Position numbers and translations under genes: made by a program
Notes under the pieces: model-generated
What the model was told of the DNA's origin: nothing
Databases searched by the model: none
The model's input: only the letters and a program-made list of their open reading frames with translations
IMG/VR virus record: IMGVR_UViG_2660238346_000033
Direction: 5' to 3' (one strand)
Length of the DNA: 37,514 nucleotides
DNA from: a virus
Lineage: Duplodnaviria; Heunggongvirae; Uroviricota; Caudoviricetes
Shown here: positions 23,148 through 37,514 of the stretch, in pieces
How positions within the stretch are numbered: position 1 is the first letter of the stretch
Layout: every line of letters begins with the position of its first letter

Positions 23148-24899
23148 ATGATTCAGGACGCTTTTGTGCGCCAGCGTGCGCGGCAACTTTACTGGCAGGG
23201 GTATCCGCCCGCAGAAATATCACGTCTGATGGGAATAAACCCGAACACGATTTATGCGTGGAAAAAACGCGACCAGTGGGATGAAACGCCACCCGTGCAG
23301 CGTGTCACGCAGTCCATCGATGCGCGCCTCATCCAGCTCACTGAAAAACAGAATAAAACAGGTGGTGACTTCAAGGAAATAGACCTGCTGACCCGGCAGC
23401 TTAAAAAACTGCATGATGGCCAGCCGGATGCGGCGGCCACAGGAAAGAAAGGCCGGGCGAAAAAACTCAAAAATCATTTCACGCCGGAACAGATTGCCGC
23501 GCTGCGGGAAAAAATCATCAGCAGGCTGGAGTGGCATCAGCGGGGCTGGTTTGACTCCCTGACCCTTTGCAGGGAAGCCGGGATACGTAACAGGATGATC
23601 CTGAAATCCCGACAGATTGGGGCGACCTGGTATTTTGCACAGGAAGCACTGCTGATGGCGCTGCGTGACGATGTGGCGCAACCTTACCAGCGTAACCAGA
23701 TTTTTTTGTCTGCGTCGCGTCGTCAGGCGTTCCAGTTTAAAAGCATTATTCAGAAGGCCGCGGCTGAAGTTGATGTGGAGCTGAAAGGGGGCGATAAAAT
23801 CATCCTCTCCAACGGCGCAGAGCTGCATTTTCTCGGCACTTCTGCTGCGTCGGCACAGTCCTATACGGGCAATTTTTATTTTGATGAATTTTTCTGGGTC
23901 AGTCGCTTTGCTGAACTGCGCAAGGTGGCTGGCGCTATGGCAACCCTCAGCGGACTGCGGCGCACCTACTTCTCCACGCCATCCACCGAAACGCACGAGG
24001 CATACGCCTACTGGAACGGCGACCGCTGGAACGAGAAAAAGGCCACGCATAAACGCCAGCGTTTTTCTGTGGACTGGAAAACGCTGCATAACGGGCTTAT
24101 CTGCCCTGACCGGACGTGGCGGCAAATTGTCACGCTGGAAGATGTGGTTAATCACGGCTGGAAACACACCGATATCGACGAAATTCGTGATGAAAACACC
24201 GAAGACGAGTTCCTCAATCTCTATATGTGTGAGTTTGTCCGCGAAGGGGAATCGGCATTTAACCTGAATATCCTGATTGGCTGCGGCGTTGACGGATACG
24301 ACGACTGGAAAGACTGGAAACCTTTTGCTCCCCGCCCGATGGGGAATCGTCCGGTATGGATTGGGTATGACGCAAACGGCAGCAGTGGCAACGGCGACAG
24401 CGGCGCTGTGTCCGTGGTGGTTCCTCCGTCTGTTCCTGGTGGCCGTTTTCGAACGGTGGAGACGCGACGCGTTCAGGGGCTGGAGTTTGAAGAACAGGCC
24501 AGAGTCATTGAAGAGTTCACGTATCGCTACAACGTGGAACACATCGGCATTGATGTGACGGGCGGGAACGGGGAGGCTGTTTATCAGATAGTGAAACGGT
24601 TTTTCCCTGCTGCTATTCCGTACACCTTCACGCTGTCATCAAAACGGTCGCTGGTACTGAAAATGCTGCAAATAATGCGTGCCGGGCGGTGGGAATACGA
24701 TCGCGCCGAACGCGAGCTGGTCGCGGCCTTTAACGCCGTGCGTAAGGTGAAAACACCGGGCGGCTTTATCACTTACGAAACGGACCGCGCGAGGGGGATC
24801 AGCCACGGCGACCTTGCGTGGGCAACCATGCTTGCTGTCATTAACGAACCGATTGGCGGCGAAGGAGAAAACGAGCGTTTCACGGTTATGGAGTTCTGA
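23148..24899 (+). CDS. P: terminase large (ATPase) subunit (P2 gpP-like)
   Basis: 583-aa ORF; stop overlaps the Q start. Confidence 0.9.
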   Translation: MIQDAFVRQRARQLYWQGYPPAEISRLMGINPNTIYAWKKRDQWDETPPVQRVTQSIDARLIQLTEKQNKTGGDFKEIDLLTRQLKKLHDGQPDAAATGKKGRAKKLKNHFTPEQIAALREKIISRLEWHQRGWFDSLTLCREAGIRNRMILKSRQIGATWYFAQEALLMALRDDVAQPYQRNQIFLSASRRQAFQFKSIIQKAAAEVDVELKGGDKIILSNGAELHFLGTSAASAQSYTGNFYFDEFFWVSRFAELRKVAGAMATLSGLRRTYFSTPSTETHEAYAYWNGDRWNEKKATHKRQRFSVDWKTLHNGLICPDRTWRQIVTLEDVVNHGWKHTDIDEIRDENTEDEFLNLYMCEFVREGESAFNLNILIGCGVDGYDDWKDWKPFAPRPMGNRPVWIGYDANGSSGNGDSGAVSVVVPPSVPGGRFRTVETRRVQGLEFEEQARVIEEFTYRYNVEHIGIDVTGGNGEAVYQIVKRFFPAAIPYTFTLSSKRSLVLKMLQIMRAGRWEYDRAERELVAAFNAVRKVKTPGGFITYETDRARGISHGDLAWATMLAVINEPIGGEGENERFTVMEF

Positions 24900-25945
24900 T
24901 GAGCAGAAAAAATAAAAAAGTGCGCATGAGTTCACGCATTGATCTCGCTGATGCGCTCAGGAAAGAATCATCGCTCAGTGCATTCACATTTGATGGCCCT
25001 TATCGCCTGACCGGGCATGACCTGCTGGACAATATGTACTGTGCCGATAACGGGCGGTGGTATGAAACCCCGGTGGACTGGTACGGTCTGGCAAGAGCTG
25101 CCCGGCAAACGTCCTGGCATCAGTCTGCGCTTTACTTTAAGCGCAATGTATTGCTCGGTTGCTATATTCCGCCCCCGCTGCTTTCCCGGCAGGATTTCTC
25201 GGCGCTGGCGCTGGACTGGTTTGTGTTCGGTAACGCATTCCTTGAGCTTCGAAGCAATATGCTCGGCGAACCGCTTAAATTACGGCACGCCCTGGCGAAA
25301 TACATGCGACGCGGAAGCGATCTTGAATCATGGTGGTATGTGCAGGATGGTAAGGACGCGTTTCAGTTTCGCCCTGGCAAAGTGTGCCACCTGATGAATC
25401 CGGATATTAACCAGGAAATCTACGGCATGCCGGAATATCTCGGCGCATTACTCTCGGCCAGCCTGTCTCATTCGGCGGACATGTTCAGAAAACTGTATTA
25501 CGACAACGGATCCCACGCCGGGTGCATCATCTACATCGGTGCAGCGCAGGTAAACCGCGAAAGCATGGACTCCCTGAAAGAAACGTTACAGGGTGCACGT
25601 GGTGGTGGTGCGTTTAAAAACGTGCTCATTCATGCGCCAAACGGGGGCAAAGAGGGGGTGCAAATTTTGCCGTTCCAGCAGATCACCGCAAAGGATGAGT
25701 TCATGAATGTTAAGGCGGCATCCCGTGATGATGTGCTGGCTGCGCACCGTGTCCCGCCGCAACTGATGGGGGCGATGCCGGGTGAAAAAAGTGCGTTTGG
25801 TGATGTGGAGAAGGCCGCGCGGGTTTACGCAATTAACGAGCTGATGCCCGTCATGGAGGCCATGAAGCACATCAATGACTGGCTTGGCGAAGAGGTGATC
25901 CGCTTTAACCCTTATGCACTGCTGGACACCCAGCCCACATCCTGA
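24899..25945 (+). CDS. Q: portal protein (P2 gpQ-like)
   Basis: 348-aa ORF downstream of P. Confidence 0.9.
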   Translation: MSRKNKKVRMSSRIDLADALRKESSLSAFTFDGPYRLTGHDLLDNMYCADNGRWYETPVDWYGLARAARQTSWHQSALYFKRNVLLGCYIPPPLLSRQDFSALALDWFVFGNAFLELRSNMLGEPLKLRHALAKYMRRGSDLESWWYVQDGKDAFQFRPGKVCHLMNPDINQEIYGMPEYLGALLSASLSHSADMFRKLYYDNGSHAGCIIYIGAAQVNRESMDSLKETLQGARGGGAFKNVLIHAPNGGKEGVQILPFQQITAKDEFMNVKAASRDDVLAAHRVPPQLMGAMPGEKSAFGDVEKAARVYAINELMPVMEAMKHINDWLGEEVIRFNPYALLDTQPTS

Positions 25946-25971
25946 CGCGCTTCGCTTGTCTGCTGCTTCGC

Positions 25972-25996
25972 CGGGGCATAAAAAATTTATGCCCCG
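25972..25996. repeat. perfect 25-bp palindrome downstream of Q
   Basis: CGGGGCATAAA-AAA-TTTATGCCCCG; possible terminator or protein-binding site. Confidence 0.6.
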
Positions 25997-26368
25997 ACTC
26001 TCCAGCTCCTGTATCAGTCAGATAATTTCACGACGCTTTCCTGCTTATTGCCATCATCGACGGTCAGACTCTTACGCAATCCCACCGCGTTAACTGCATG
26101 TTCTCGCCGCCTCAGTGCGATTTTGACGGCCTTATCTGCCACCCCATCAAATCAAAAGCCCTCACGTCTTTTTCACGCTCAGCGTGAGAAATACAGCCAT
26201 TCTGTTGTGTTGCTGCGACATCGTTCAGGGGATGCTATTTACCCCCTGAAACGCGGGCTGTTCCCCCGTCACCTGCGCGCAGAAAAAACGCGTTTTTTGT
26301 GCACGCACGGATCCCTGACGGATCCAGCCGCCACGCGGGCCGGAAGGGCAAAAAGTCGTTCAAAAAAA

Positions 26369-26395
26369 TTGTGCAAATTTGTGCACTATTGTGCA
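26369..26395. repeat. three direct TTGTGCA repeats at exactly 10-bp spacing
   Basis: TTGTGCA at 26369, 26379 and 26389, with a further copy at 26297; helical-phase iteron-like arrangement. Confidence 0.6.
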
Positions 26396-26414
26396 TTGCG
26401 CACTTGTTATAAAT

Positions 26415-26443
26415 AAACAAAAAAAGAGCCGCTATTGCGGCTC
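26415..26443 (-). terminator. rho-independent terminator of the peptidase-PIN operon
   Basis: GAGCCGC-TATT-GCGGCTC hairpin preceded on the + strand by an A-run (T-run on the - strand); 34 bp downstream of the PIN-like gene. Confidence 0.65.
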
Positions 26444-26476
26444 AATATAATCCAATATGGCAAGAGAAATTTGGAT

Positions 26477-26995
26477 TCATTCGAAACTGGCAAGAATCTG
26501 TTCTCGAACAGAAGATTTCATCGTTAACCCACGATCTAGGAAAAATTGGAAATGCATTAAGGCTTGTTGTTTGTGTATAAGTCTCCTGCGCACAGCCTCT
26601 TGAAGTAGCCCTCCGTGGCGGGCGGCTTTTACACCGCGTTCCGCACACGTTTTATAAACCGCATTATCCGCCGAAAGACATGTTGCATCATGTATTCTCG
26701 CGTTAACAACGCAGCTTATGTCCGCATACTTCAATGCTCTCCTGCGATTTTTTATCTCAGCCATTTCAATAAAATGTTCAGGTTCGTAATCATTGGTGAA
26801 ATTGTATGGAAGTTGCAGGCGTGTAAGCTGTTCCTGAACATCAAGATTGTATTTAGCTTTTAGTTCCTCGCAGACATAGGGGTCAATCCACACACCACCC
26901 GGGTAAATTTGCCAGATAATATCTAAGCATTTACCTTCGTAAAAATCAGACAGTACATTCGTATCGATAACACATCTGGGGCATTCAAACGGCAT
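26477..26995 (-). CDS. PIN-like nuclease domain protein (candidate toxin/effector)
   Basis: N-terminal VIDTNVLSDF plus later acidic residues (E near 44, D near 104-123) fit the PIN pattern; GGAGAGG RBS; start overlaps the end of the upstream peptidase gene by 11 nt. Confidence 0.55.
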   Translation of the reverse strand: MPFECPRCVIDTNVLSDFYEGKCLDIIWQIYPGGVWIDPYVCEELKAKYNLDVQEQLTRLQLPYNFTNDYEPEHFIEMAEIKNRRRALKYADISCVVNARIHDATCLSADNAVYKTCAERGVKAARHGGLLQEAVRRRLIHKQQALMHFQFFLDRGLTMKSSVREQILASFE

Positions 26996-28130
26996 CCTCT
27001 CCGGCCTCCTGTTCGTCGTACCATTCATCCAGAAGATTGCTGAGAGCTTTTCTGTCTAATTCTAAAAGTTCAGATATGAAGGTTTCCGACGCGGAACCGG
27101 CTTCCCATGCTTTACGCGATAAGACGGTTAGGCGACCTTTATAATTTAGTGCTTCCCTAATGGGATTTGGCTCGTGTCTCTTCCAACCTTTACGATTGGC
27201 GGTTGCCCATAGGTATCTAGTGTTTTGTTGATTAATTAAATTACATTTACTAAGACGATCGATGATGCAAGTGGCTGATACTCTGAAAATGCTTTTTAGT
27301 CTAAGGACGGTTTCCTCATACGCCCATCCACCACCTTGCATGACGAATTGTTTTCGCAATGCGCTTTCTGGTACCAAAAAACAAGCAGCAAAGTGATTAG
27401 CAACTTTTTCTTCCGGTGAAATTGCTTTGCCATTAGTTTTATAGCTTTTAGCAGGGCCATCATACTCATCACGGTGGAAGATAAGATGAGCATATTCATG
27501 GCAAATACTGAAGATTTGACGTTCTATTGAAATGCTGTCGTGAACATTTACATAAATCGCGGTACCGTATTTGTTCGAAAACGCAGAAAATCCGAATACC
27601 ATCCCTTTATCGGTTTCTTCGCGATTGAACGGGATTACTCGAATATCCGATGCTTCCAAAATGGCTACAATGTCACCAACGCAAGTAGCGTTACCTATAC
27701 CAAGACGGAAACGTTCTTCCATAGCCTTATCTTCGACTCTTCGCAAATCTTCTGCTTTGGCGGTAAAAATAGGCATTGAGTTAGGAAGATCTTCTGGCAA
27801 ATTAGCATCAGCAGCTTCCTCAATTGCATTGATATTTTTTAACTTTTCAATCAACTCATTGCGAAGTTTGGCATCCAACAAATCCGGACTATCTGCCCGC
27901 ATTGCAAAACGAAACTCGCCATCATCTTGCTCATAAAAATACCCGATAGGCTTATCGAAAATCTTGCAGAGCATGATGAGTTGGGTAACGCTTGGGACGC
28001 CTAACGCCTGCTCAAACTTACTGTAGGTTTGACGAACAACACCGATCGCATCTGCGACGGCGCTTGCACTCATTCCCGCGTCGTTTCTGGCCTGAACCAA
28101 GCGTTCTGCTATACGCTGTTGAATGTTCAT
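26985..28130 (-). CDS. XRE-family HTH fused to ImmA/IrrE-type zinc metallopeptidase
   Basis: N-terminal HTH (QQRIAERLVQARNDAGMSASAVADAIGVVRQTYSKFE) and central HEYAHLIFH (HExxH) peptidase motif; AT-rich. Confidence 0.7.
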   Translation of the reverse strand: MNIQQRIAERLVQARNDAGMSASAVADAIGVVRQTYSKFEQALGVPSVTQLIMLCKIFDKPIGYFYEQDDGEFRFAMRADSPDLLDAKLRNELIEKLKNINAIEEAADANLPEDLPNSMPIFTAKAEDLRRVEDKAMEERFRLGIGNATCVGDIVAILEASDIRVIPFNREETDKGMVFGFSAFSNKYGTAIYVNVHDSISIERQIFSICHEYAHLIFHRDEYDGPAKSYKTNGKAISPEEKVANHFAACFLVPESALRKQFVMQGGGWAYEETVLRLKSIFRVSATCIIDRLSKCNLINQQNTRYLWATANRKGWKRHEPNPIREALNYKGRLTVLSRKAWEAGSASETFISELLELDRKALSNLLDEWYDEQEAGEDAV

Positions 28131-28284
28131 ACGTCACCTGAATTTAACAATGGTGGCTCTTATGGGTTTAGATTGGTTAATTATTACTAACATTATGAAT
28201 GGAGAGTTGCAAAAATCATAGTTAAATTATGCAAATTTCATGGAGCGTGATGTGGTGTGGGTTCACACTCTCTGCTGATTACAT

Positions 28285-28305
28285 CCAGGGCGGTTTCCGC
28301 CCTGG
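28285..28305. terminator. stem-loop downstream of parR
   Basis: CCAGGGCGG-TTT-CCGCCCTGG perfect 9-bp stem; no clear U-tract. Confidence 0.4.
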
Positions 28306-28314
28306 CTCTGCTTA

Positions 28315-28623
28315 CTAAGGAAATAGCGCCCGGATATTTCCGGCCATCTGACTGGTTATCTGTGCGGTTGGTACTGGCTGTGACACGGGGCGTTCTGTCC
28401 TGGTTTGTGTCACGGATAACGCCTCATCGTCAGCCCATGCAGCCAGTCGGTAAGCCTCTGCCGGATTCATTTTCAGAAGTGCCAGCCCGGCCAGAAAAGC
28501 CACGCGTTGGCCGCTTTTGCGGGCTTCTGGTGTAAGGCTGTCCAGCCAGGCGCATGCTTCGCCTTCGTTCTTGACGGCGGCGGGCTTCAGATAGAAACTT
28601 ATCCGTCTGGTTGGTGTCGTCAT
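28315..28623 (-). CDS. parR: ParR/StbB-like centromere-binding protein (ribbon-helix-helix)
   Basis: MTTPTRRISFYLKP...AWLDSLTPEARKSGQRVAFLAGLALLKMNP resembles plasmid R1 ParR; AAGGAG RBS; start 5 nt after parM stop. Confidence 0.7.
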   Translation of the reverse strand: MTTPTRRISFYLKPAAVKNEGEACAWLDSLTPEARKSGQRVAFLAGLALLKMNPAEAYRLAAWADDEALSVTQTRTERPVSQPVPTAQITSQMAGNIRALFP

Positions 28624-28627
28624 TGGT

Positions 28628-29587
28628 TTACTCCTTGTCCATTGCGTACAACCCATTAACCAGAGCAAACTGTGGCACCCCGTCCGCGATGAAAGTCGCA
28701 TTAACTCCGCAGGCTTCGCGGATAGCGGGTGCCACAATCTCCGCCCCGCCACCGACAACCATCACCCGCCCGTAACCCGAAAAACCCGCCAGCGCGCGGA
28801 TCACGCGTTGTTTCAGTGTTTCTTCCTTTTCACGAATAACCGCCATCAGGCTGGCGTAATGCGCGTCATTATGGATGTGCTGGCGCAGCCAGGCTTCATC
28901 ATGGCGATGTTCGATAATGGTATTGGCGATGTGGTGACTGGTGCGCATACCGTTAGTGGCCATCACCGACAGTACGGCATCGGCCATCAGAGAAACGCCT
29001 ACGTGTGGATCGCAAAACACCTGGCTGATACCTGCCAGTTGCCCCTGAACCTTTGCCACATCCAGCGTGGTTCCGCCCAAATCCACAATCAGCAGGGATT
29101 CAAACGGACTCATGTCAGCCAGTGCCTTAAAGCCAGCCGGAATGGATTCAGGCATAACCCGCACGTTACGGATAGTGAATGCTTCGCCGTGCTGGTACTC
29201 CACCGGGCGCATAACGTTCGCTTTTTTGCGGTTGATGTTGGCCATGTCCGGCTGTGCGTTTGTGTCGAAATACTCGCTCAGTGGCAGGGTGACAACCACA
29301 TCCACCTCCTGTGGCGTGATGCCTGATTTGACCAGCGCGTGATGAATGGCAATGACATTCACATCGCTGTACTGGTATTGCGTGTCGGTCGTCTGGACAA
29401 AGCGATCGCTGACCGGATCAAAACCATAGCGCACGCCATCAAGCATGTAGTTCGCGGGCTGCGTGCCACCGAACGGCGCAGACCATTCCGACTTGAAGCT
29501 GTTCGGGCTGATGGCGTTGCGGCGTTCGCCGTTCTCAGTCCATGCCAGCTTGATGTTGGTGGAGCCGTCGTCGATACAAATTTTCAT
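28628..29587 (-). CDS. parM: ParM/StbA-like actin-type segregation ATPase
   Basis: MKICIDDGSTNIKLAW... (phosphate-1), LIVDLGGTTLDV (phosphate-2), VMVVGGGAEIV (adenosine) motifs; N-terminus closely resembles R1 ParM. Confidence 0.8.
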   Translation of the reverse strand: MKICIDDGSTNIKLAWTENGERRNAISPNSFKSEWSAPFGGTQPANYMLDGVRYGFDPVSDRFVQTTDTQYQYSDVNVIAIHHALVKSGITPQEVDVVVTLPLSEYFDTNAQPDMANINRKKANVMRPVEYQHGEAFTIRNVRVMPESIPAGFKALADMSPFESLLIVDLGGTTLDVAKVQGQLAGISQVFCDPHVGVSLMADAVLSVMATNGMRTSHHIANTIIEHRHDEAWLRQHIHNDAHYASLMAVIREKEETLKQRVIRALAGFSGYGRVMVVGGGAEIVAPAIREACGVNATFIADGVPQFALVNGLYAMDKE

Positions 29588-29621: not shown

Positions 29622-29714
29622 ACGGGATTCTGAAATCCCGTTTTTGCCTGTTTTGTGTGCGCTTTATATATCGCGGCGCGTTTTTTGCTCATTTACGGGA
29701 TTTGTGAATCCCGT
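29622..29714. repeat. two 20-bp palindromes flanking the parMR promoter (parC-like operator/centromere)
   Basis: ACGGGATTCTGAAATCCCGT (29622-29641) and ACGGGATTTGTGAATCCCGT (29695-29714); the second lies in the last codons of gene A. Confidence 0.55.
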
Positions 29715-32486
29715 TTCTGTCTGTTTTTTGTTTCCACTGGTCAGGCCACCCCGCAGCAGGTTTGCTTTGCGGCGGGCGCGTTCAGTGGTTTCACTGATTC
29801 TCTGTGCGTGCTCTGCGTCGCGGATGGCGCGCAGCATGTCAGAAAGTACGGTAACGGGTGTTTTCATGGTGTTCTGGTCTTGCTGAAGTGTGGATGCCAG
29901 GCGTGCGGCGGCTTCGGGGTCTGATGCCCCCAGCTGCTCCAGATAGCTGGCGACCGGGTTATGGCGGATCTCCGTGCTGCTTGCGCCGTGGTTACGGCTC
30001 AGGCGCTGCCAGAGCTGCGTGATCCGGCTGTCCGGTCGGGTATCCGGTTTGCGTACAATTTCAAATCCCTGCGGTGCAATGATGCTGCCGTCAACGTACA
30101 GACTGCCGCCCCGTAACAGGTGCTGCATTTGCTGTTCACCGATATGCAGGCCGAGAGATTCAGCAGACTCCCGCCATTCTTTAGCGAGTAATTCGTGGTT
30201 ATCAGGCAAAGGCCGCTGCTGTTTGCGGCTCTGTGTCCAGCTCTGCATTTCATCACTGCTGTTTTTTGCCTGTTTGTCACGAAGCGAACGCATCAGCGCC
30301 CGGCGTTCGTGCCGTTTCAGTGAGCGCATCCATTCGTTCACGTCAACGCCGTCAGGAAGCTGCGGCCACGGTGCTGGCCGTTCTTCCGGCTGTTCTGTCC
30401 CGTTGTTGTCCGTTTCCTGTACACGGGGACAGTTATTGCCACGAGTCCAAGGGGCGGCAGGGCCGCCCTGAAGGTCAAAACCATTTTCGCGGGCGCTGTC
30501 TTCCGCTTCCGGTTTACGTCTTACCAGCTTCCAGTTATCCGGGTGCGTGCACACGCGGGAAGATTCCCCGATTTGTGGCGACCAGATCCCGTAAATCTGT
30601 ACGCTTTGCTCGCCGTAATCGTTCAGCTCTTCTGCGAGGTCGTAGGCGGTGCGAATCAGGTAGTCTTTGCGTGGAACAAGTACGCCACCCTGTTTCTCAA
30701 TGTAGGTGGCAAAACACCCGGCATCAGCGGCAGCGAGTACCGCATCCATTGCGTCATTTTCCAGACGTTGTGGACCTTCCGGGTTGCGGGCCATCTGACT
30801 GGCAAGGCGGCGGAGTTCACGCCATACCTGACGGGAGGGGATACCAAAGAACTGGAACTGGCGGATGCGGTGAAGACGCGCCCAGCCGATGGCGCGTTCC
30901 ACGCTCTCGGCCATTGATTTTCCGGTTTCGTGGTCCACGCGTGGCTTGTCCGTTTTCGGGTCGATGCCATCCACGGCGCGGCTGTCCAGGTTCTTTCCGA
31001 TGTAGGTGGCGATGTAGCTGGTTGGCGTGCCTTTTGAGCCGTCGACATACTCCACCTTAAAGCGCGGAGTAATATCATTGCCCAGCTCGTGGCGGTCTTC
31101 CTGAATGGCAATATCGCGGGTATGGGACACAATGGTGTCGATTTCTTCCGGATGTGCAAAGACCATCATATGCCAGTGTACGGTGCCGTCATGATGAGGC
31201 TCCACCGTGCGGATGCCATACCAGCGCAGGTCGTCGCGGTTCAGTTTTTTGCGGACCGCCGCAAAAAACGTGTTAACCAGGTAATCGCTGGAGTCGCGCA
31301 TTGTGGCCCCGTTCCATTTGGGATTCGGATGACCGTTCTCCGTTGTGGCGTGGTATTTTGACGGGCAGGTGACAGTCAGAAACACCGCTTTGTCGCCACG
31401 GGCTTCGGCCAGAAGTTCCAGCCCCTTCATGGTGGCCATCATTTCTGCCTTACGGTGAACCGGGTTACTTACTCCCGCGTAATACACCGTCTCGAGATCA
31501 ATCGTGAACCCGTCTTCATTTTCCAGCATGAAACTTTTCAGGAAATCGCGTGTTTTCTCGCGCTGTGCGCGAAACTCGCTTAACGCGTCCTGGCTCAGAT
31601 AGGGCGATGTTTTTCTGGAAACCAGACAGGCGGCGCGGAGTTGTTCTTCTCTCCACTCGCAACGTAACAGCCACAGTTTGCGTTTCCACCATTCCGCACA
31701 GGTCAGGCGAAGGATTGCGCCCGGCAGCAGTTCTGTGTCCGGTTCGTGCCTCCGGTCTTTGTCTGTTGTCAGTGCGTCATAATGCGGAGGCATGGCGTGT
31801 AAGTGTAACGCCATGCGGGCCAGCATCTGATACGCCTTCAGCGTTACATCCATGGTCAGCTCGCCATTAGTCGCGCCAAAACCATCGCAGAGTTTTTCGA
31901 AGGTGCTGCTGAACATCGCCGCCGTCATGGTGGCCAGCGTCTGTATCTGGTGTTTGTTGAGTTGCGGCAGGTAAAGCAAATCGTCCAGGCGTTCACGTCC
32001 GGCAAGGGAGCGATAACCCGATGTCAGCCATCGGTGATCGGTGCGCTCCAGACGTTCGAATATTTTGCGCAGGGTCCCACGCGCATAGCGTTCTGCCTGC
32101 CTGGCGTTTTTTCCTTTCTGACGATCGGCTTCCTGTTTTTTGCGCAGGAAGGAGAGGTGGCGAATAAGCGGATCGCGCAGATAGGACGGCAGCAGGCGCA
32201 GTGAGGCCATGGCCTCATCTACCGCGCCGCGTGCCTGTTTTCTGGCGTCTCCTGCCAGTGTGATTGTTTTGTCCTGTTTTTCCTGTGCGTCCAGGCTTTT
32301 ATTAATCAGGTTGCCCAGCGGCGTGGCGGAGAACGCCGCATCAGCCATTTCCTGGCGGCGCTCGTTCTCTGCCCGGTAGGCATCCAGCCAGGAGGAAAGC
32401 GCGGATTCAGGAGCGGGGATCCCCGTTCCTTCACGCCCCACTGCGTGGCGCGGTTGTTGCCAGTCCCTGATGTACTCTGCCGTCAT
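29664..32486 (-). CDS. A: rolling-circle replication initiation endonuclease (P2 gpA-like)
   Basis: 940-aa ORF with HUH-type motif (VHWHMMVF) and conserved central region; longer than P2 gpA. Confidence 0.85.
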   Translation of the reverse strand: MTAEYIRDWQQPRHAVGREGTGIPAPESALSSWLDAYRAENERRQEMADAAFSATPLGNLINKSLDAQEKQDKTITLAGDARKQARGAVDEAMASLRLLPSYLRDPLIRHLSFLRKKQEADRQKGKNARQAERYARGTLRKIFERLERTDHRWLTSGYRSLAGRERLDDLLYLPQLNKHQIQTLATMTAAMFSSTFEKLCDGFGATNGELTMDVTLKAYQMLARMALHLHAMPPHYDALTTDKDRRHEPDTELLPGAILRLTCAEWWKRKLWLLRCEWREEQLRAACLVSRKTSPYLSQDALSEFRAQREKTRDFLKSFMLENEDGFTIDLETVYYAGVSNPVHRKAEMMATMKGLELLAEARGDKAVFLTVTCPSKYHATTENGHPNPKWNGATMRDSSDYLVNTFFAAVRKKLNRDDLRWYGIRTVEPHHDGTVHWHMMVFAHPEEIDTIVSHTRDIAIQEDRHELGNDITPRFKVEYVDGSKGTPTSYIATYIGKNLDSRAVDGIDPKTDKPRVDHETGKSMAESVERAIGWARLHRIRQFQFFGIPSRQVWRELRRLASQMARNPEGPQRLENDAMDAVLAAADAGCFATYIEKQGGVLVPRKDYLIRTAYDLAEELNDYGEQSVQIYGIWSPQIGESSRVCTHPDNWKLVRRKPEAEDSARENGFDLQGGPAAPWTRGNNCPRVQETDNNGTEQPEERPAPWPQLPDGVDVNEWMRSLKRHERRALMRSLRDKQAKNSSDEMQSWTQSRKQQRPLPDNHELLAKEWRESAESLGLHIGEQQMQHLLRGGSLYVDGSIIAPQGFEIVRKPDTRPDSRITQLWQRLSRNHGASSTEIRHNPVASYLEQLGASDPEAAARLASTLQQDQNTMKTPVTVLSDMLRAIRDAEHAQRISETTERARRKANLLRGGLTSGNKKQTETGFTNPVNEQKTRRDI

Positions 32487-34184: not shown

Positions 34185-34535
34185 TTATAAATCAGCCTGT
34201 TTAATAAAACTTTGCCCGCGAAGCAGACGATCAACCGTGCGAAGTGCTTCGTATAATGTGAAATCCTGCCCGAAGTGATTGTCGCCGCAGTTCAATGCAA
34301 AAATGCGGTTTCCGGTAAACGGATTGCGTGGGCATTTGTGGACCACGATTCCAGCTTTCTCAATCAGCCAGGCATGCTCGCCGATTTGTTTTACAGCGTG
34401 GCCATCCGGTGTTGCGTGCGTCTCGTTCAGGTTATAGCGACTGTTACTACGTGATGCACTGGTAGCGACGTGGTGTACATGGCGTTCTACGCCATTACGA
34501 AATTTGGAGTATGGATTATTAGCGTTTTTTTTCAT
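34185..34535 (-). CDS. hypothetical early-region protein
   Basis: 116-aa ORF with His/Cys-containing C-terminal half; function not recognisable. Confidence 0.4.
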   Translation of the reverse strand: MKKNANNPYSKFRNGVERHVHHVATSASRSNSRYNLNETHATPDGHAVKQIGEHAWLIEKAGIVVHKCPRNPFTGNRIFALNCGDNHFGQDFTLYEALRTVDRLLRGQSFIKQADL

Positions 34536-34556
34536 GATGGTGCTCTGTTCATTGTT

Positions 34557-34760
34557 TTAGCTGTTAGCCAAAGCGTCTTTTAACATCGCCACAAGGTTTA
34601 CTTCAGGCTTTTCCATTTTGGCGCGTTTGGGTCGGATAATAATTCGACCGTCAGCCAACATCTTTTTGCATGTATTAAGAGGGATACCTGTTATCTCTGC
34701 ATATTTCTGCAGGGATACATAGGGGGCATTCACATTGATATTGATGGTTATACCTGACAT
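34557..34760 (-). CDS. small HTH DNA-binding protein (excisionase/Cox-Apl-like)
   Basis: YVSLQKYAEITGIPLNTCKKMLADGRI HTH-like segment; second gene of the lytic operon. Confidence 0.45.
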   Translation of the reverse strand: MSGITININVNAPYVSLQKYAEITGIPLNTCKKMLADGRIIIRPKRAKMEKPEVNLVAMLKDALANS

Positions 34761-34776
34761 CCCACTAGCCTCCTGA

Positions 34777-34983
34777 TCAGGAAGATTTGTTTTGTTCTTT
34801 CTGGGTTAGCTCTAGGCCGCGAAGGAAGATCATGCGCGCCATGTTAGAGGATGAGCGTTGTTCTTTAGCTGCCATTTCATCAATGACGGCTCGCTCCTCG
34901 AGGGACAGCCGAAGTGCCAGTCTTGGACCTGTGGCGGTGTTACGCGGAATGCGTGATCTGGTATCGTGAAGAACTTGTTTCAT
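34777..34983 (-). CDS. small ribbon-helix-helix-type regulator (Cro/Cox-analogue)
   Basis: RLALRLSLEERAVIDEMAAKEQRSSSNMARMIFLRGLE resembles RHH folds; first gene divergent from the repressor. Confidence 0.5.
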   Translation of the reverse strand: MKQVLHDTRSRIPRNTATGPRLALRLSLEERAVIDEMAAKEQRSSSNMARMIFLRGLELTQKEQNKSS

Positions 34984-35059
34984 AGTGGTATATTGTGATC
35001 ATCTAATAGCTCGTGAAATCATTTTGGTATCAAAAAAGATACCTGTCAAGGTTTTTTGT
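34984..35059. promoter_or_regulatory. lysis-lysogeny switch region with operator-like palindrome
   Basis: 76-bp divergent intergenic region; perfect palindrome GGTATC-AAAAAA-GATACC at 35026-35043; further GGTAT half-sites at about 34960 and 34987. Confidence 0.5.
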
Positions 35060-35464
35060 ATGAAAAATGATATTGGTCAGCGGTTGCGTGAGGAAAGGGA
35101 AAGATTGGGACTTAGTCAAGTTGCCATGAGCGACATTGGTGGAGTCAAAAAGCTAACTCAGCTTAGATATGAGAAAGGAGATAGCTTTCCTGATGCTGCG
35201 TATTTGGCAGCGCTGTCTCGTTTTGGCCTTGATGTTCAGTATGTTGTGTTGGGAATTCACTCACCTGAAACTTATAACGATGATGAGCAGGAGTTGATTA
35301 CTCGCTTTCGAGCAGCTTCGTTAGATGTGAAAAATGCGGTGATTGGGGCTTTAAAAGGTGCGATCAGTGAAAAGGAAACTCAGCCATCAGGACGTGAGTT
35401 AAATATTTCTGGTGGTAATAACCGTATCGCTGGTCGTGACTATAACGAAACTAAGGGTAGGTGA
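35060..35464 (+). CDS. immunity repressor (XRE-family HTH, C/CI-like)
   Basis: IGQRLREERERLGLSQVAMSDIGGVKKLTQLRYEKG HTH; divergent from the lytic operon and co-oriented with integrase. Confidence 0.7.
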   Translation: MKNDIGQRLREERERLGLSQVAMSDIGGVKKLTQLRYEKGDSFPDAAYLAALSRFGLDVQYVVLGIHSPETYNDDEQELITRFRAASLDVKNAVIGALKGAISEKETQPSGRELNISGGNNRIAGRDYNETKGR

Positions 35465-35479
35465 TAGTAGGGAGGTGAC

Positions 35480-36130
35480 ATGGCCGTCAACTCAAACGGT
35501 TCAAACAATCGCGTTGCTGGGCGTGATTTTCACGAAAAGAATATTCAGATAGAGCGATATGATGGTTCTCAGACCGTCAATATCGCAATCCCTTCGAATA
35601 ATGATGATGACGATCGCCCTTTGCTTAAGGCTCAGCGTAAGGAGCTAAATAGCTTGGTTGCTGCTATTGCAGAAGCTAGCAATACTGAAGCGTTTATTAT
35701 TTGGCAAAAAGTACATGCGGAGATTGGTGTAGCTGGTATTGATGATATGACAGTAAATCAATATAAAACAGCGGAGAGTTTTCTGCATGCAATGCTTGAG
35801 CGATGTAAAGATCATGATGCCTGTAAGGCTCTTGTAAGTTTATTACTACGTAACAGTGAAGACTGTGGACTTCGACAAAAACTTCTGCGGTATTGCCATA
35901 TCAATTTCGGTACAGGACGTTTAAACGATCTTACTCGTTCTCAGTTACAGTCTGCATTGTCGTGGTTAGAGCAACAATCGGCATCAAGCCACACAGAGAG
36001 TTCGACCTTACCAGAAGTCCGACTTCGTGCTTCAGAATTAATCCGACTTTATCCAAAAGAAATAATATTCTTTATCTGCGTAGGGGTTTTGGTAGGCGGT
36101 GTCATTTCTAGGGCGTTTTTTAATTTGTAA
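35480..36130 (+). CDS. cargo protein with C-terminal transmembrane anchor, unknown function
   Basis: 216-aa ORF, GGAGG RBS, C-terminal hydrophobic helix IIFFICVGVLVGGVISRAFF; AT-rich. Confidence 0.55.
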   Translation: MAVNSNGSNNRVAGRDFHEKNIQIERYDGSQTVNIAIPSNNDDDDRPLLKAQRKELNSLVAAIAEASNTEAFIIWQKVHAEIGVAGIDDMTVNQYKTAESFLHAMLERCKDHDACKALVSLLLRNSEDCGLRQKLLRYCHINFGTGRLNDLTRSQLQSALSWLEQQSASSHTESSTLPEVRLRASELIRLYPKEIIFFICVGVLVGGVISRAFFNL

Positions 36131-36159
36131 TCTTACTTGAGCTAAATTGAGGTAATGAT

Positions 36160-36507
36160 ATGAAAGTAAAAAAGGTTCAACTATTAGTTACTTTTTTATC
36201 TATGTTTTCTTTTTCCGCCGTCGCAATGCCTTTTAAAACTATTGAACGTGAGAGTTTCAATGGGGTATGGCCATTTAATACTGATGAGGTTCAATTACAG
36301 TGTCTTGATGGTAATCCTTATGTGATGAATTTTGACGATAATAAGTTATATGCACTTACAGGTTTGGCTCGAATAAAAGGTAAAACATTTGGTGCGTTAC
36401 CGTTAGATAACAATAATCCATTTTGGCTAGATAATGATGCCGCCCCAGGGTTAAAAAAGAGTCTGGGGGATGTCACTAAGGCTGCATTTGATTTATGTGA
36501 TAAGTAA
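36160..36507 (+). CDS. small secreted/periplasmic cargo protein, unknown function
   Basis: 115-aa ORF with signal peptide MKVKKVQLLVTFLSMFSFSAVA; AT-rich; ends 6 bp before integrase. Confidence 0.55.
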   Translation: MKVKKVQLLVTFLSMFSFSAVAMPFKTIERESFNGVWPFNTDEVQLQCLDGNPYVMNFDDNKLYALTGLARIKGKTFGALPLDNNNPFWLDNDAAPGLKKSLGDVTKAAFDLCDK

Positions 36508-36512
36508 CTAAA

Positions 36513-37514
36513 ATGTCGGTTCGTAAGATTCCATCAGGTAAATGGCTTTGCGAATGTTATCCCTACGGGGCATCGGGAAAACGCATTCGTAAACAGTTTG
36601 CGACAAAAAGTGAGGCGCTCTCTTATGAGCGCCGTTTAATGAATAGTAGAGTTGGAGACGAGTTTCAAGATGGTTCTGGTCCTCGTCTTTCTGAGTTGAT
36701 TGCTCGTTGGTTTGAGATGTACGGTAAAACCTTGTCCTCTGGTGCAGAGCGCAAAGTCAAACTTGAGGCGATTTGTTCCAGGCTGGGAGATCCATTTGCT
36801 TCTCAGTTTGACAAAAATATGTTTGCTACTTATCGGGAAAGAAGGCTATCAGGAGAATGGAATCCCAAGGGGAAGAAAAAACTTAGTGAAGCAACCGTTA
36901 ATCGCGAGCAGTCATATCTACATGCTGTTTTTGCCGAACTGAAGCGCCTTGGGGAGTGGTCTGGTGAAAACCCCCTGACTGGTATTCGCAAGTTTCGTGA
37001 GGAAGAAAAGGAACTGGCGTTTCTGTATGTAGATGAGATTGAACGCCTTCTGATTGCGTGTGATGAGTCACGGAATAAAGATTTGGGGGTTGTTGTCCGT
37101 ATTGGGCTTGCGACGGGTGCTCGGTGGAGTGAAGCAGAAGGATTAAAGCAATCTCAAGTACTGCCCGGTCGAATCACATTTGTTAAAACTAAAGGAAAGA
37201 AGAACCGCACTGTACCGATTTCACCTCAATTGCAGGCTATGCTTCCTAAAAAACGAGGAGCGCTATTTTCACCATGTTATGAGGCTTTTGACGCTGCAAT
37301 TAAGAGAGCGAAGATCGAGCTTCCTGATGGGCAATTAACTCATGTGCTACGTCACACGTTTGCCAGTCATTTTATGATGCGGGGCGGAAATATTCTTGTG
37401 TTGCAAAAAATACTGGGGCATAGCGATATAAAAATGACTATGCGTTATGCGCATTTTGCTCCAGGTCATTTAGAGGCTGCTGTTGAATTGAACCCTTTTG
37501 ACAATAGAGGGTAA
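36513..37514 (+). CDS. int: tyrosine integrase (P2 Int family)
   Basis: 333-aa ORF with HVLRHTFASHF and LGHSDIKMTMRYAHF catalytic-region motifs; stop codon is the last 3 nt of the window. Confidence 0.9.
   Translation: MSVRKIPSGKWLCECYPYGASGKRIRKQFATKSEALSYERRLMNSRVGDEFQDGSGPRLSELIARWFEMYGKTLSSGAERKVKLEAICSRLGDPFASQFDKNMFATYRERRLSGEWNPKGKKKLSEATVNREQSYLHAVFAELKRLGEWSGENPLTGIRKFREEEKELAFLYVDEIERLLIACDESRNKDLGVVVRIGLATGARWSEAEGLKQSQVLPGRITFVKTKGKKNRTVPISPQLQAMLPKKRGALFSPCYEAFDAAIKRAKIELPDGQLTHVLRHTFASHFMMRGGNILVLQKILGHSDIKMTMRYAHFAPGHLEAAVELNPFDNRG

Follow-up and report, generated by a model that had tools for sequence, protein, structure and literature searches.

The window analysed here, the whole 37,514-nucleotide stretch of DNA recorded as IMGVR_UViG_2660238346_000033, is a P2-like prophage of Escherichia coli, and our subject is an insert of about 1.9 kb that it carries between the portal gene Q and the gpA-type replication gene. 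The insert holds two genes, both on the (-) strand, with no further open reading frame (ORF) inside it. ORF1 encodes an Xre-type helix-turn-helix (HTH) domain joined to an ImmA/IrrE zinc peptidase; the protein belongs to the RmrA family, and its metal site is intact. ORF2 encodes a PIN protein of VapC-like type in which the acidic catalytic residues are present. The two genes are tightly coupled in a single operon that has a leader and a terminator to itself. The account that we favour, and hold to be probable if well short of certain, is that of a self-contained, horizontally mobile type II-like toxin-antitoxin (TA) module of the Rosmer kind, which the prophage bears as cargo in its cos-proximal A-Q hotspot. 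The features of the insert are as follows.

26396..28281 (-): whole cargo insert; fills the variable slot that the cos-proximal backbone and parR enclose; from BLAST homology breaks and the drop in G+C content
26985..28130 (-): ORF1, 381 aa; Xre HTH, M78 (ImmA/IrrE) zinc peptidase and C-terminal helical domain; presumed RmrA-like antitoxin and autorepressor
27936..28094 (-): Xre/Cro-type HTH domain of ORF1, residues 13-65; from Pfam HTH_3 and Foldseek
27252..27554 (-): M78 peptidase core of ORF1, residues 193-293; from Pfam Peptidase_M78
27500-27486 (-): HEYAH motif of ORF1 (H211, E212, H215); presumed third zinc ligand E241 at 27410-27408
26477..26995 (-): ORF2, 172 aa; VapC-like PIN nuclease, probably of COG2405/DUF3368 type; presumed toxin and effector
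26985..26995 (-): 11-nt overlap of ORF1 stop and ORF2 start, sequence GGAGAGGATGCCGTTTGA
26416..26443 (-): intrinsic terminator; from a terminator scan; 7-bp G+C-rich stem (6 GC pairs), 4-nt loop and a tail of seven T
28131..28281 (-): 5' leader, presumed promoter/operator; conserved blocks in the upstream alignment

A preliminary description of this locus, made from the sequence alone, had the two genes coupled through an 11-nt overlap, which depends on where ORF2 begins. The mechanical listing of ORFs starts it at an ATG at 27028 (183 aa); the MPF N-terminus found in 14 of 14 full-length homologues and the 172-aa RefSeq product place the start at the ATG at 26995, and with that start the overlap with ORF1 (26985-26995) is indeed 11 nt. 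Candidate Shine-Dalgarno sequences for ORF2 are an AGGAGG 9 nt upstream of this ATG and a closer GGAG. The acidic C-terminal tail of ORF1 (..EDAV; DAV in relatives of about 40% identity) is conserved and covers the ORF2 ribosome-binding site and the near-invariant MPF start (26985-27000), a conservation that could reflect dual coding or a functional tail.

The dedicated terminator and separate upstream region that had been described are likewise present. The terminator is a hairpin, GAGCCGCAATAGCGGCTC, followed by seven T residues (26443..26426, (-) strand), 34 nt 3' of the ORF2 stop and within the edge of the insert. At the other end, when the sequences upstream of ORF1 in E. coli, Gibbsiella, Rahnella and a metagenome-assembled genome (MAG) are aligned, the leader proves invariant in four short elements and diverged elsewhere: CATAAT (28197-28192), AAyTAAC (about 28182-28176), GTTAA (about 28148-28144) and the ORF1 Shine-Dalgarno sequence AGGTGA, 4 nt ahead of the ATG. 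Conservation of the first three across genera marks them as candidate promoter or operator elements. An Rfam scan of 25900-28700 returned a single chance match far below threshold. The insert is AT-rich against a GC-richer backbone, as had been noted (42.3% G+C for 26396-28281 against 52.4% in the remaining window; for equal-sized windows there, mean 52.7%, sd 4.8, minimum 40.9%), though not uniquely so, the region at about 34500-36900 being equally AT-rich.

The reading of the first protein as an HTH domain fused to an ImmA/IrrE-type peptidase is borne out by domain and fold searches alike. Pfam places HTH_3 at residues 13-65 (E 3.1e-8) and Peptidase_M78 at residues 193-293 (E 1.5e-11), and the AlphaFold2 model (mean predicted local distance difference test score, pLDDT, 84.7; low-confidence linkers at residues 70-80 and 226-235) matches IrrE (3dte), PprI (8slm) and CapP (7t5t) in Foldseek over its peptidase part and P22 c2, SinR, C.BclI and the N-terminal domain of CapH over its N-terminus. 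A helical C-terminal domain, at about residues 300-380, follows the peptidase. In 23 ORF1 homologues whose identity goes as low as 25%, H211, E212 and E241 never vary and conservation of H215 reaches at least 90%; judged by these residues, the HExxH...E zinc site is intact. ORF1 matches 15 PADLOC models of RmrA, the antitoxin of RosmerTA, the best with E 2.8e-35 over residues 4-321, together with weaker PADLOC matches to CapP and PDC-M69B and a match to phrog_2439 in PHROGs (E 2e-45). The NCBIfam model of the spr1629 repressor/antitoxin scores 86 bits, below its equivalog cut-off of 335, and the relatives found in phages by tblastn are only 20-25% identical. A sequence search of the PDB gave chain A of 9vzy as the sole match (E 0.002, over the peptidase region). 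This chain is an unnamed 393-aa 'HTH cro/C1-type domain-containing protein', the entry may represent the structure of an RmrA-like protein, and a literature search found no paper for it.

For the second protein, described earlier as PIN-like with DUF4411 as one of the domains to look for, the PIN fold stands and DUF4411 does not: the Pfam PIN score is 24.9 bits against a cut-off of 23.6, and PF14367 (DUF4411) gives no Pfam match at E<=1. The AlphaFold2 model has a pLDDT of 93.2, and the top 50 PDB matches in Foldseek are all PIN proteins (VapC toxins, FitB, PIN-type RNase P and a PIN-carrying archaeal RuvB-like helicase) with probability 1.0, the TM-score by target against VapC toxins being 0.6-0.7; a profile search of PDB sequences gave no match at E<=1. 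D11 (in DTNV), E43/E44, D92 and D110 (in SAD) do not vary among 14 homologues, these active-site residues having been assigned by motif position and not by three-dimensional comparison, and relatives of 20-37% identity keep D or E at the matching columns, in a loose alignment. The Pfam scan of ORF2 itself does not list PF11848 (DUF3368), the short helical segment at the C-terminus that typifies the COG2405 group of PIN proteins, at E<=1; precomputed matches place it on a 98%-identical protein (P0001) and on nearly all ORF2 homologues, some of them flagged as weak, and in distant relatives it scores 1e-6 to 1e-8, over residues of about 123-168. Membership of the COG2405/DUF3368 subfamily is, on this pattern of matches, probable.

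The two genes are inherited and transferred as one unit, and their close coupling persists in relatives as remote as about 30% identity. In all 11 distinct loci that hold an ORF2 relative, an ORF1 relative lies directly upstream of it, the PIN gene never occurs alone, and the junction is a 4-17 nt overlap or a 4-nt gap. The settings of these loci include the E. coli P2 prophage, a Gibbsiella P2 remnant, chromosomal non-phage sites in Rahnella and a MAG, and a Mu-like region, and the copy in Lamprobacter adjoins an MmeI-type restriction-modification gene. Toxin and antitoxin identities fall together, 37% with 41% and 27% with 34%. Two decayed copies were found. In Enterobacter sp. BRE11 (locus L016, 4001-4393) an in-frame deletion has taken about residues 62-103 out of the PIN protein, D92 among them, next to an intact antitoxin; in Ca. 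Pantoea deserta (locus L015, 3535-4515) the antitoxin lacks about residues 43-260, the peptidase included, and keeps its N- and C-terminal parts, and the PIN gene is frameshifted near residue 150. As read from these sequences, the pattern of decay, with the PIN protein damaged when its partner is intact or both lost, is typical of TA pairs.

The position of the module in the A-Q hotspot, already proposed in the preliminary description, is clear from its neighbours. On its left come capsid scaffold, terminase and portal Q (24899-25945, +); on its right, all on the (-) strand, are ParR (28315-28626), ParM (28628-29587) and the gpA-type replication endonuclease (29664-32486), so that a partition pair (parR, Plasmid_stab_B; parM, ParM/StbA) stands between the cargo and gpA. 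The integrase closes the window from 36513. In BLAST comparisons with E. coli prophages that carry other cargo, homology breaks off at 26395/6 on the left side and at 28282-28312 on the right, which delimits the variable slot. In those prophages the slot contains phd/doc with a ClpX zinc-finger protein, Ead/Ea22-like genes, a DUF3800 gene or about 670 bp free of genes. By megablast, the whole module is present in 32 of 5,426 complete E. coli genomes, always on the chromosome and with 99.8% identity in those listed, and the flanks occur without it in 424 of the 5,426.

The A-Q hotspot is cos-proximal and rich in validated defence systems, according to Rousset et al. 2022 (PMC9122126). Table S5A of that work names this exact pair, WP_033544760 + WP_001603073, at the P2 A-Q hotspot; in the tables at hand the pair does not appear among the systems that were cloned and tested, the sole peptidase entry among the evaluated systems being a different one ('Peptidase + TM', pFR104). 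The same source states that about a quarter of P2-like phages carry a par partition system and suggests plasmid-like maintenance, and the parMR neighbour here bears on a retention role for the adjoining TA pair. In P2 itself, tin/old occupies the same slot by cos between Q and A and has no sequence or domain kinship with our pair. The 19-mer used to represent P2 cos is absent from the window with up to 3 mismatches allowed, and the 450 bp conserved downstream of Q (25946-26395) are likely to contain a cos site of another sequence.

Two repeats lie near the edges of the slot. A perfect 9-bp inverted repeat, CCAGGGCGG TTT CCGCCCTGG, occupies 28285-28305 at the right edge, just past the parR stop and with no T-run; it is present in some prophages with other cargo (L013) and missing in others (L012). 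A 15-nt direct repeat, AAATTGTGCAAATTT / AAATTATGCAAATTT, loosely flanks the insert at 26366-26380 and 28224-28238, its backbone copy lying inside a run of TGCRCAA repeats (26365-26405) that adjoins the left junction. We rejected this repeat as a recombination scar: it is off the junctions and occurs about as often as chance allows.

The pair had not been recognised as belonging to any named defence family, a verdict that the RmrA matches of ORF1, a published prediction of the pairing from 2017 and the entry in Table S5A overturn. The closest named system is RosmerTA (RmrT/RmrA; Millman et al. 2022). Like ORF1, RmrA is a protein of about 380 aa with an N-terminal Xre HTH and an M78 ImmA/IrrE domain; RosmerTA, too, is a two-gene operon on mobile elements, and RmrA relatives pair with many unrelated toxins. 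The rmrA deletion could not be transformed (Millman 2022 preprint), RmrTA of Gordonia phage Kita defends against phage (PMC10440598), and in Streptococcus pneumoniae RipAB (spr1630/spr1629), for whose antitoxin model ORF1 falls far under the equivalog cut-off, RipB (spr1629) antagonises RipA (PMC12795458). The difference lies in the toxin, which here is a PIN protein, in contrast to a toxin of unknown function (Millman), the membrane-depolarising RmrT of phage Kita and the DnaN-targeting RipA. If the PADLOC rule requires both genes, as we assume, the locus would probably not be called RosmerTA.

The combination found here has itself been anticipated on computational grounds. Matelska et al. 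2017 (PMC5499597) predicted HTH-DUF955 (COG2856) with PIN-like proteins (COG2405/DUF4411/PIN_14/20/26) as a TA class, with the same domain pairing and gene order as in our operon, and gave as an example a Geobacillus locus in which an HTH-DUF955 fusion precedes a protein of COG2405. NetFlax (Ernits et al. 2023, PMC10440598) likewise predicts the pairing computationally, linking the ImmA node D25 to PIN toxins; the accessions of the window pair were not found in the portion of its tables available. A literature search found no experiment on the HTH-M78 and PIN pairing or on this pair, phage protection included.

Seen from its toxin, the module resembles VapBC, in that ORF2 has the VapC fold (closest structures Pyrococcus VapC4 and the VapCs of Klebsiella pneumoniae and Mycobacterium tuberculosis) with its acidic residues conserved, and its gene overlaps and follows that of its partner. 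It differs from VapBC in that the partner is a 381-aa HTH-peptidase, with no small VapB of AbrB, ribbon-helix-helix, Phd or COG2886 type upstream, and in the probable DUF3368-type C-terminal helical extension of ORF2. PDC-S70, a PADLOC candidate defence gene for a PIN nuclease with which ORF2 shares only a remote kinship, is by definition a one-gene system, found mostly in archaea, whereas the PIN gene here always stands with an HTH-peptidase gene; one cold-seep PDC-S70 member reportedly cut the plating of T4, T5 and T7 by 100 to 1000-fold (10.1101/2024.09.26.614923), and the more distant ORF2 relatives from a profile search match PDC-S70 models to E 3e-16. Seen from its antitoxin, the module shares the peptidase fold, the HExxH...E site and the teamwork with an Xre-type HTH of ImmR/ImmA (ICEBs1), DdrO/IrrE-PprI (Deinococcus) and CapH/CapP (CBASS), which are the best-studied models for DNA-damage sensing by such proteases. 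In those systems the protease and its repressor are two proteins, and what they govern is the transcription of other genes, whereas here HTH and peptidase are fused, the insert has no separate small HTH gene, and the output would be the co-translated toxin; the GAF-like sensor domain of IrrE was not detected in ORF1. PD-lambda-2 (Vassallo 2022; HigB-like, Xre-peptidase and P4-antitoxin-like proteins) was considered and set aside, the insert having two genes, no HigB-like protein and no PADLOC match to PD-lambda-2. The clpP-linked E101 TA of Rousset 2021 is a different system, and identity with an exact characterised system was rejected, PADLOC having returned the antitoxin and a weak candidate family only.

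The preliminary description went on to suggest a TA-like or abortive-infection module with the protease as antitoxin or trigger and the nuclease as effector, and the homology of ORF1 to the RosmerTA and RipAB antitoxins and of ORF2 to VapC points the same way. In the Rosmer-type module that we favour, the HTH domain of ORF1 would repress the operon at the conserved leader motifs, and ORF1 would bind the PIN protein directly and thereby neutralise it, a protein-level control that is needed because the toxin is translated from ORF1's own mRNA. A phage-linked cue would then inactivate or consume ORF1 or turn on its peptidase; by analogy with IrrE, ImmA and CapP this cue might be DNA damage or single-stranded DNA (ssDNA), and a phage protein or a lost host proteolytic balance are further candidates. 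Since the protease site is conserved, proteolysis is likely to be part of the switch, as it is in ImmA, IrrE and CapP. The freed PIN protein would cleave RNA, stop translation and abort the infection, protecting the lysogen population and the resident prophage, and the addiction property of such a pair would also aid retention of the prophage.

Several observations weigh against this reading. We infer the toxicity of ORF2, its neutralisation by ORF1, the phage phenotype and the trigger all by analogy, with anchors that come from relatives. ORF2 has no match at E<=1 to the RmrT toxin models of PADLOC-DB v2, and its matches to PDC-S70 models are weak (E 2.7e-4, 19.1 bits, and E 1.4e-3); since the literature allows diverse toxins, the missing RmrT match lowers the expectation that current tools would call the locus RosmerTA and not the expectation that it works like RosmerTA. 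A consensus scan of the leader yielded no sigma-70 promoter, so that its suggested promoter and operator roles derive from conservation only. The ORF2 subfamily is also very rare: of 1.84 billion representatives, 64 match at E<=1e-3 and 8 at E<=1e-10, a scan of 185,579 species genomes gave 3 loci, and tblastn gave no match in 50,697 phage records or 72,556 plasmids. So sparse a distribution does not allow its function to be argued from large-scale comparison, for example from enrichment in defence islands. Lastly, the adjacency to parMR and the presence of phd/doc in the same slot elsewhere fit maintenance as well as defence.

The last point leads to an addiction module that acts by post-segregational killing and not in defence, an explanation that we regard as unlikely on its own. 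Such a module would stabilise the P2-like element as a ParMR-partitioned plasmid, or protect it against curing, loss of a labile antitoxin leaving the PIN protein to arrest the cell. The module sits directly beside parR/parM, and the slot next to these genes holds phd/doc and the ClpX zinc-finger protein in other E. coli prophages; phd/doc is the addiction pair of the P1 plasmid prophage. The partition system may let such prophages persist as plasmids, as Rousset 2022 proposes. Weighing against addiction are the copies of the pair without par genes, at chromosomal sites in Rahnella and the MAG and beside a restriction-modification gene, the lack of any ORF2 relative in the plasmid set by tblastn and the wealth of validated defence systems in the hotspot. 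Addiction and defence roles do not exclude each other.

A bolder form of the Rosmer-type reading makes the fused HTH-peptidase the phage sensor itself, and more than a labile antitoxin with a passive part. Switched on, in the manner of IrrE or CapP, by a cue such as ssDNA or DNA damage, it would cut itself, or a segment that holds the toxin, and free a pre-made PIN RNase within minutes, with toxin binding residing in the C-terminal helical domain, which the peptidase-less Ca. Pantoea deserta variant retains. This version is speculative, and we regard it as unlikely.

We consider it quite unlikely that the locus works through transcription alone, as a switch of the ImmR/ImmA, DdrO/IrrE or CapH/CapP kind condensed into one protein, in which the HTH would repress the operon until DNA damage or infection made the peptidase cut the HTH or linker in cis or in trans and so induced the PIN gene as effector, with no protein-protein neutralisation, the model put forward by Matelska 2017 (PMC5499597). 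The likeness of the ORF1 peptidase fold to IrrE, PprI and CapP, a conserved HExxH...E site implying that proteolysis matters, the low-confidence linkers at 70-80 and 226-235 in the ORF1 model and the conserved leader motifs would all suit it. It is opposed by the gene arrangement, in which the PIN gene overlaps ORF1 on a shared mRNA, so that any basal or induced transcription yields both proteins and an autoregulated repressor would make toxin; by RmrA and RipB, which are antitoxins in trans; and by locus L015, where deletion of the peptidase coincides with a frameshift in the toxin, as lost protection predicts.

Least of all do we credit reversed roles (a toxic peptidase held by its own HTH, with PIN as an accessory or RNA-processing protein; Makarova 2009 'Xre-COG2856') or an inert, decaying passenger in E. 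coli, both very unlikely, since the older literature that has COG2856 as the toxin (as summarised in PMC6929052), the toxicity of the Xre-peptidase fusion PD-lambda-2B by itself (PMC9519451) and the existence of decayed copies are set against E. coli copies that are intact, 99.8% identical across the listed genomes (32 with the whole module) and complete in their catalytic residues, against decayed copies in which PIN is hit whenever its partner is intact, and against an invariant PIN catalytic set.

Three further regions of the window drew our attention. An ORF of 626 aa in the structural block (16274-18154, -) matches DUF1737, SASA (sialate/carbohydrate acetylesterase) and DUF6645, has no PADLOC match and may be a surface-glycan-modifying moron or a tail-associated enzyme. 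An ORF of 201 aa (9622-10227, +), with a hexapeptide-transferase repeat at 26.2 bits, below the cut-off of 27, may be an acetyltransferase-type moron. The AT-rich region at 34500-36900 (G+C about 0.41), with a repressor-like HTH ORF (34985-35464) on one side and the integrase (from 36513 to the end of the window) on the other, holds a 216-aa ORF (35480-36130, +) without a Pfam or PADLOC match and may be another cargo slot.

With the HTH-M78 and PIN pairing predicted in 2017 and the pair already catalogued at the hotspot, the module would fill a predicted branch and would open no new category. RosmerTA-type systems are widespread and appear in every defence census, and in the literature we found no account of how the RosmerTA HTH-zinc-peptidase antitoxin senses infection or controls its toxin. 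PIN proteins are an easily assayed toxin class, and the module is near-identical in 32 of the 5,426 complete E. coli genomes, which makes it a convenient model; a putative PIN toxin in a shared E. coli prophage lends itself to the questions of the trigger, the role of the protease site, and defence versus retention. If the sensor reading is true, the module would provide the first mechanistic account of Rosmer-type triggering, in a genetically tractable E. coli prophage.

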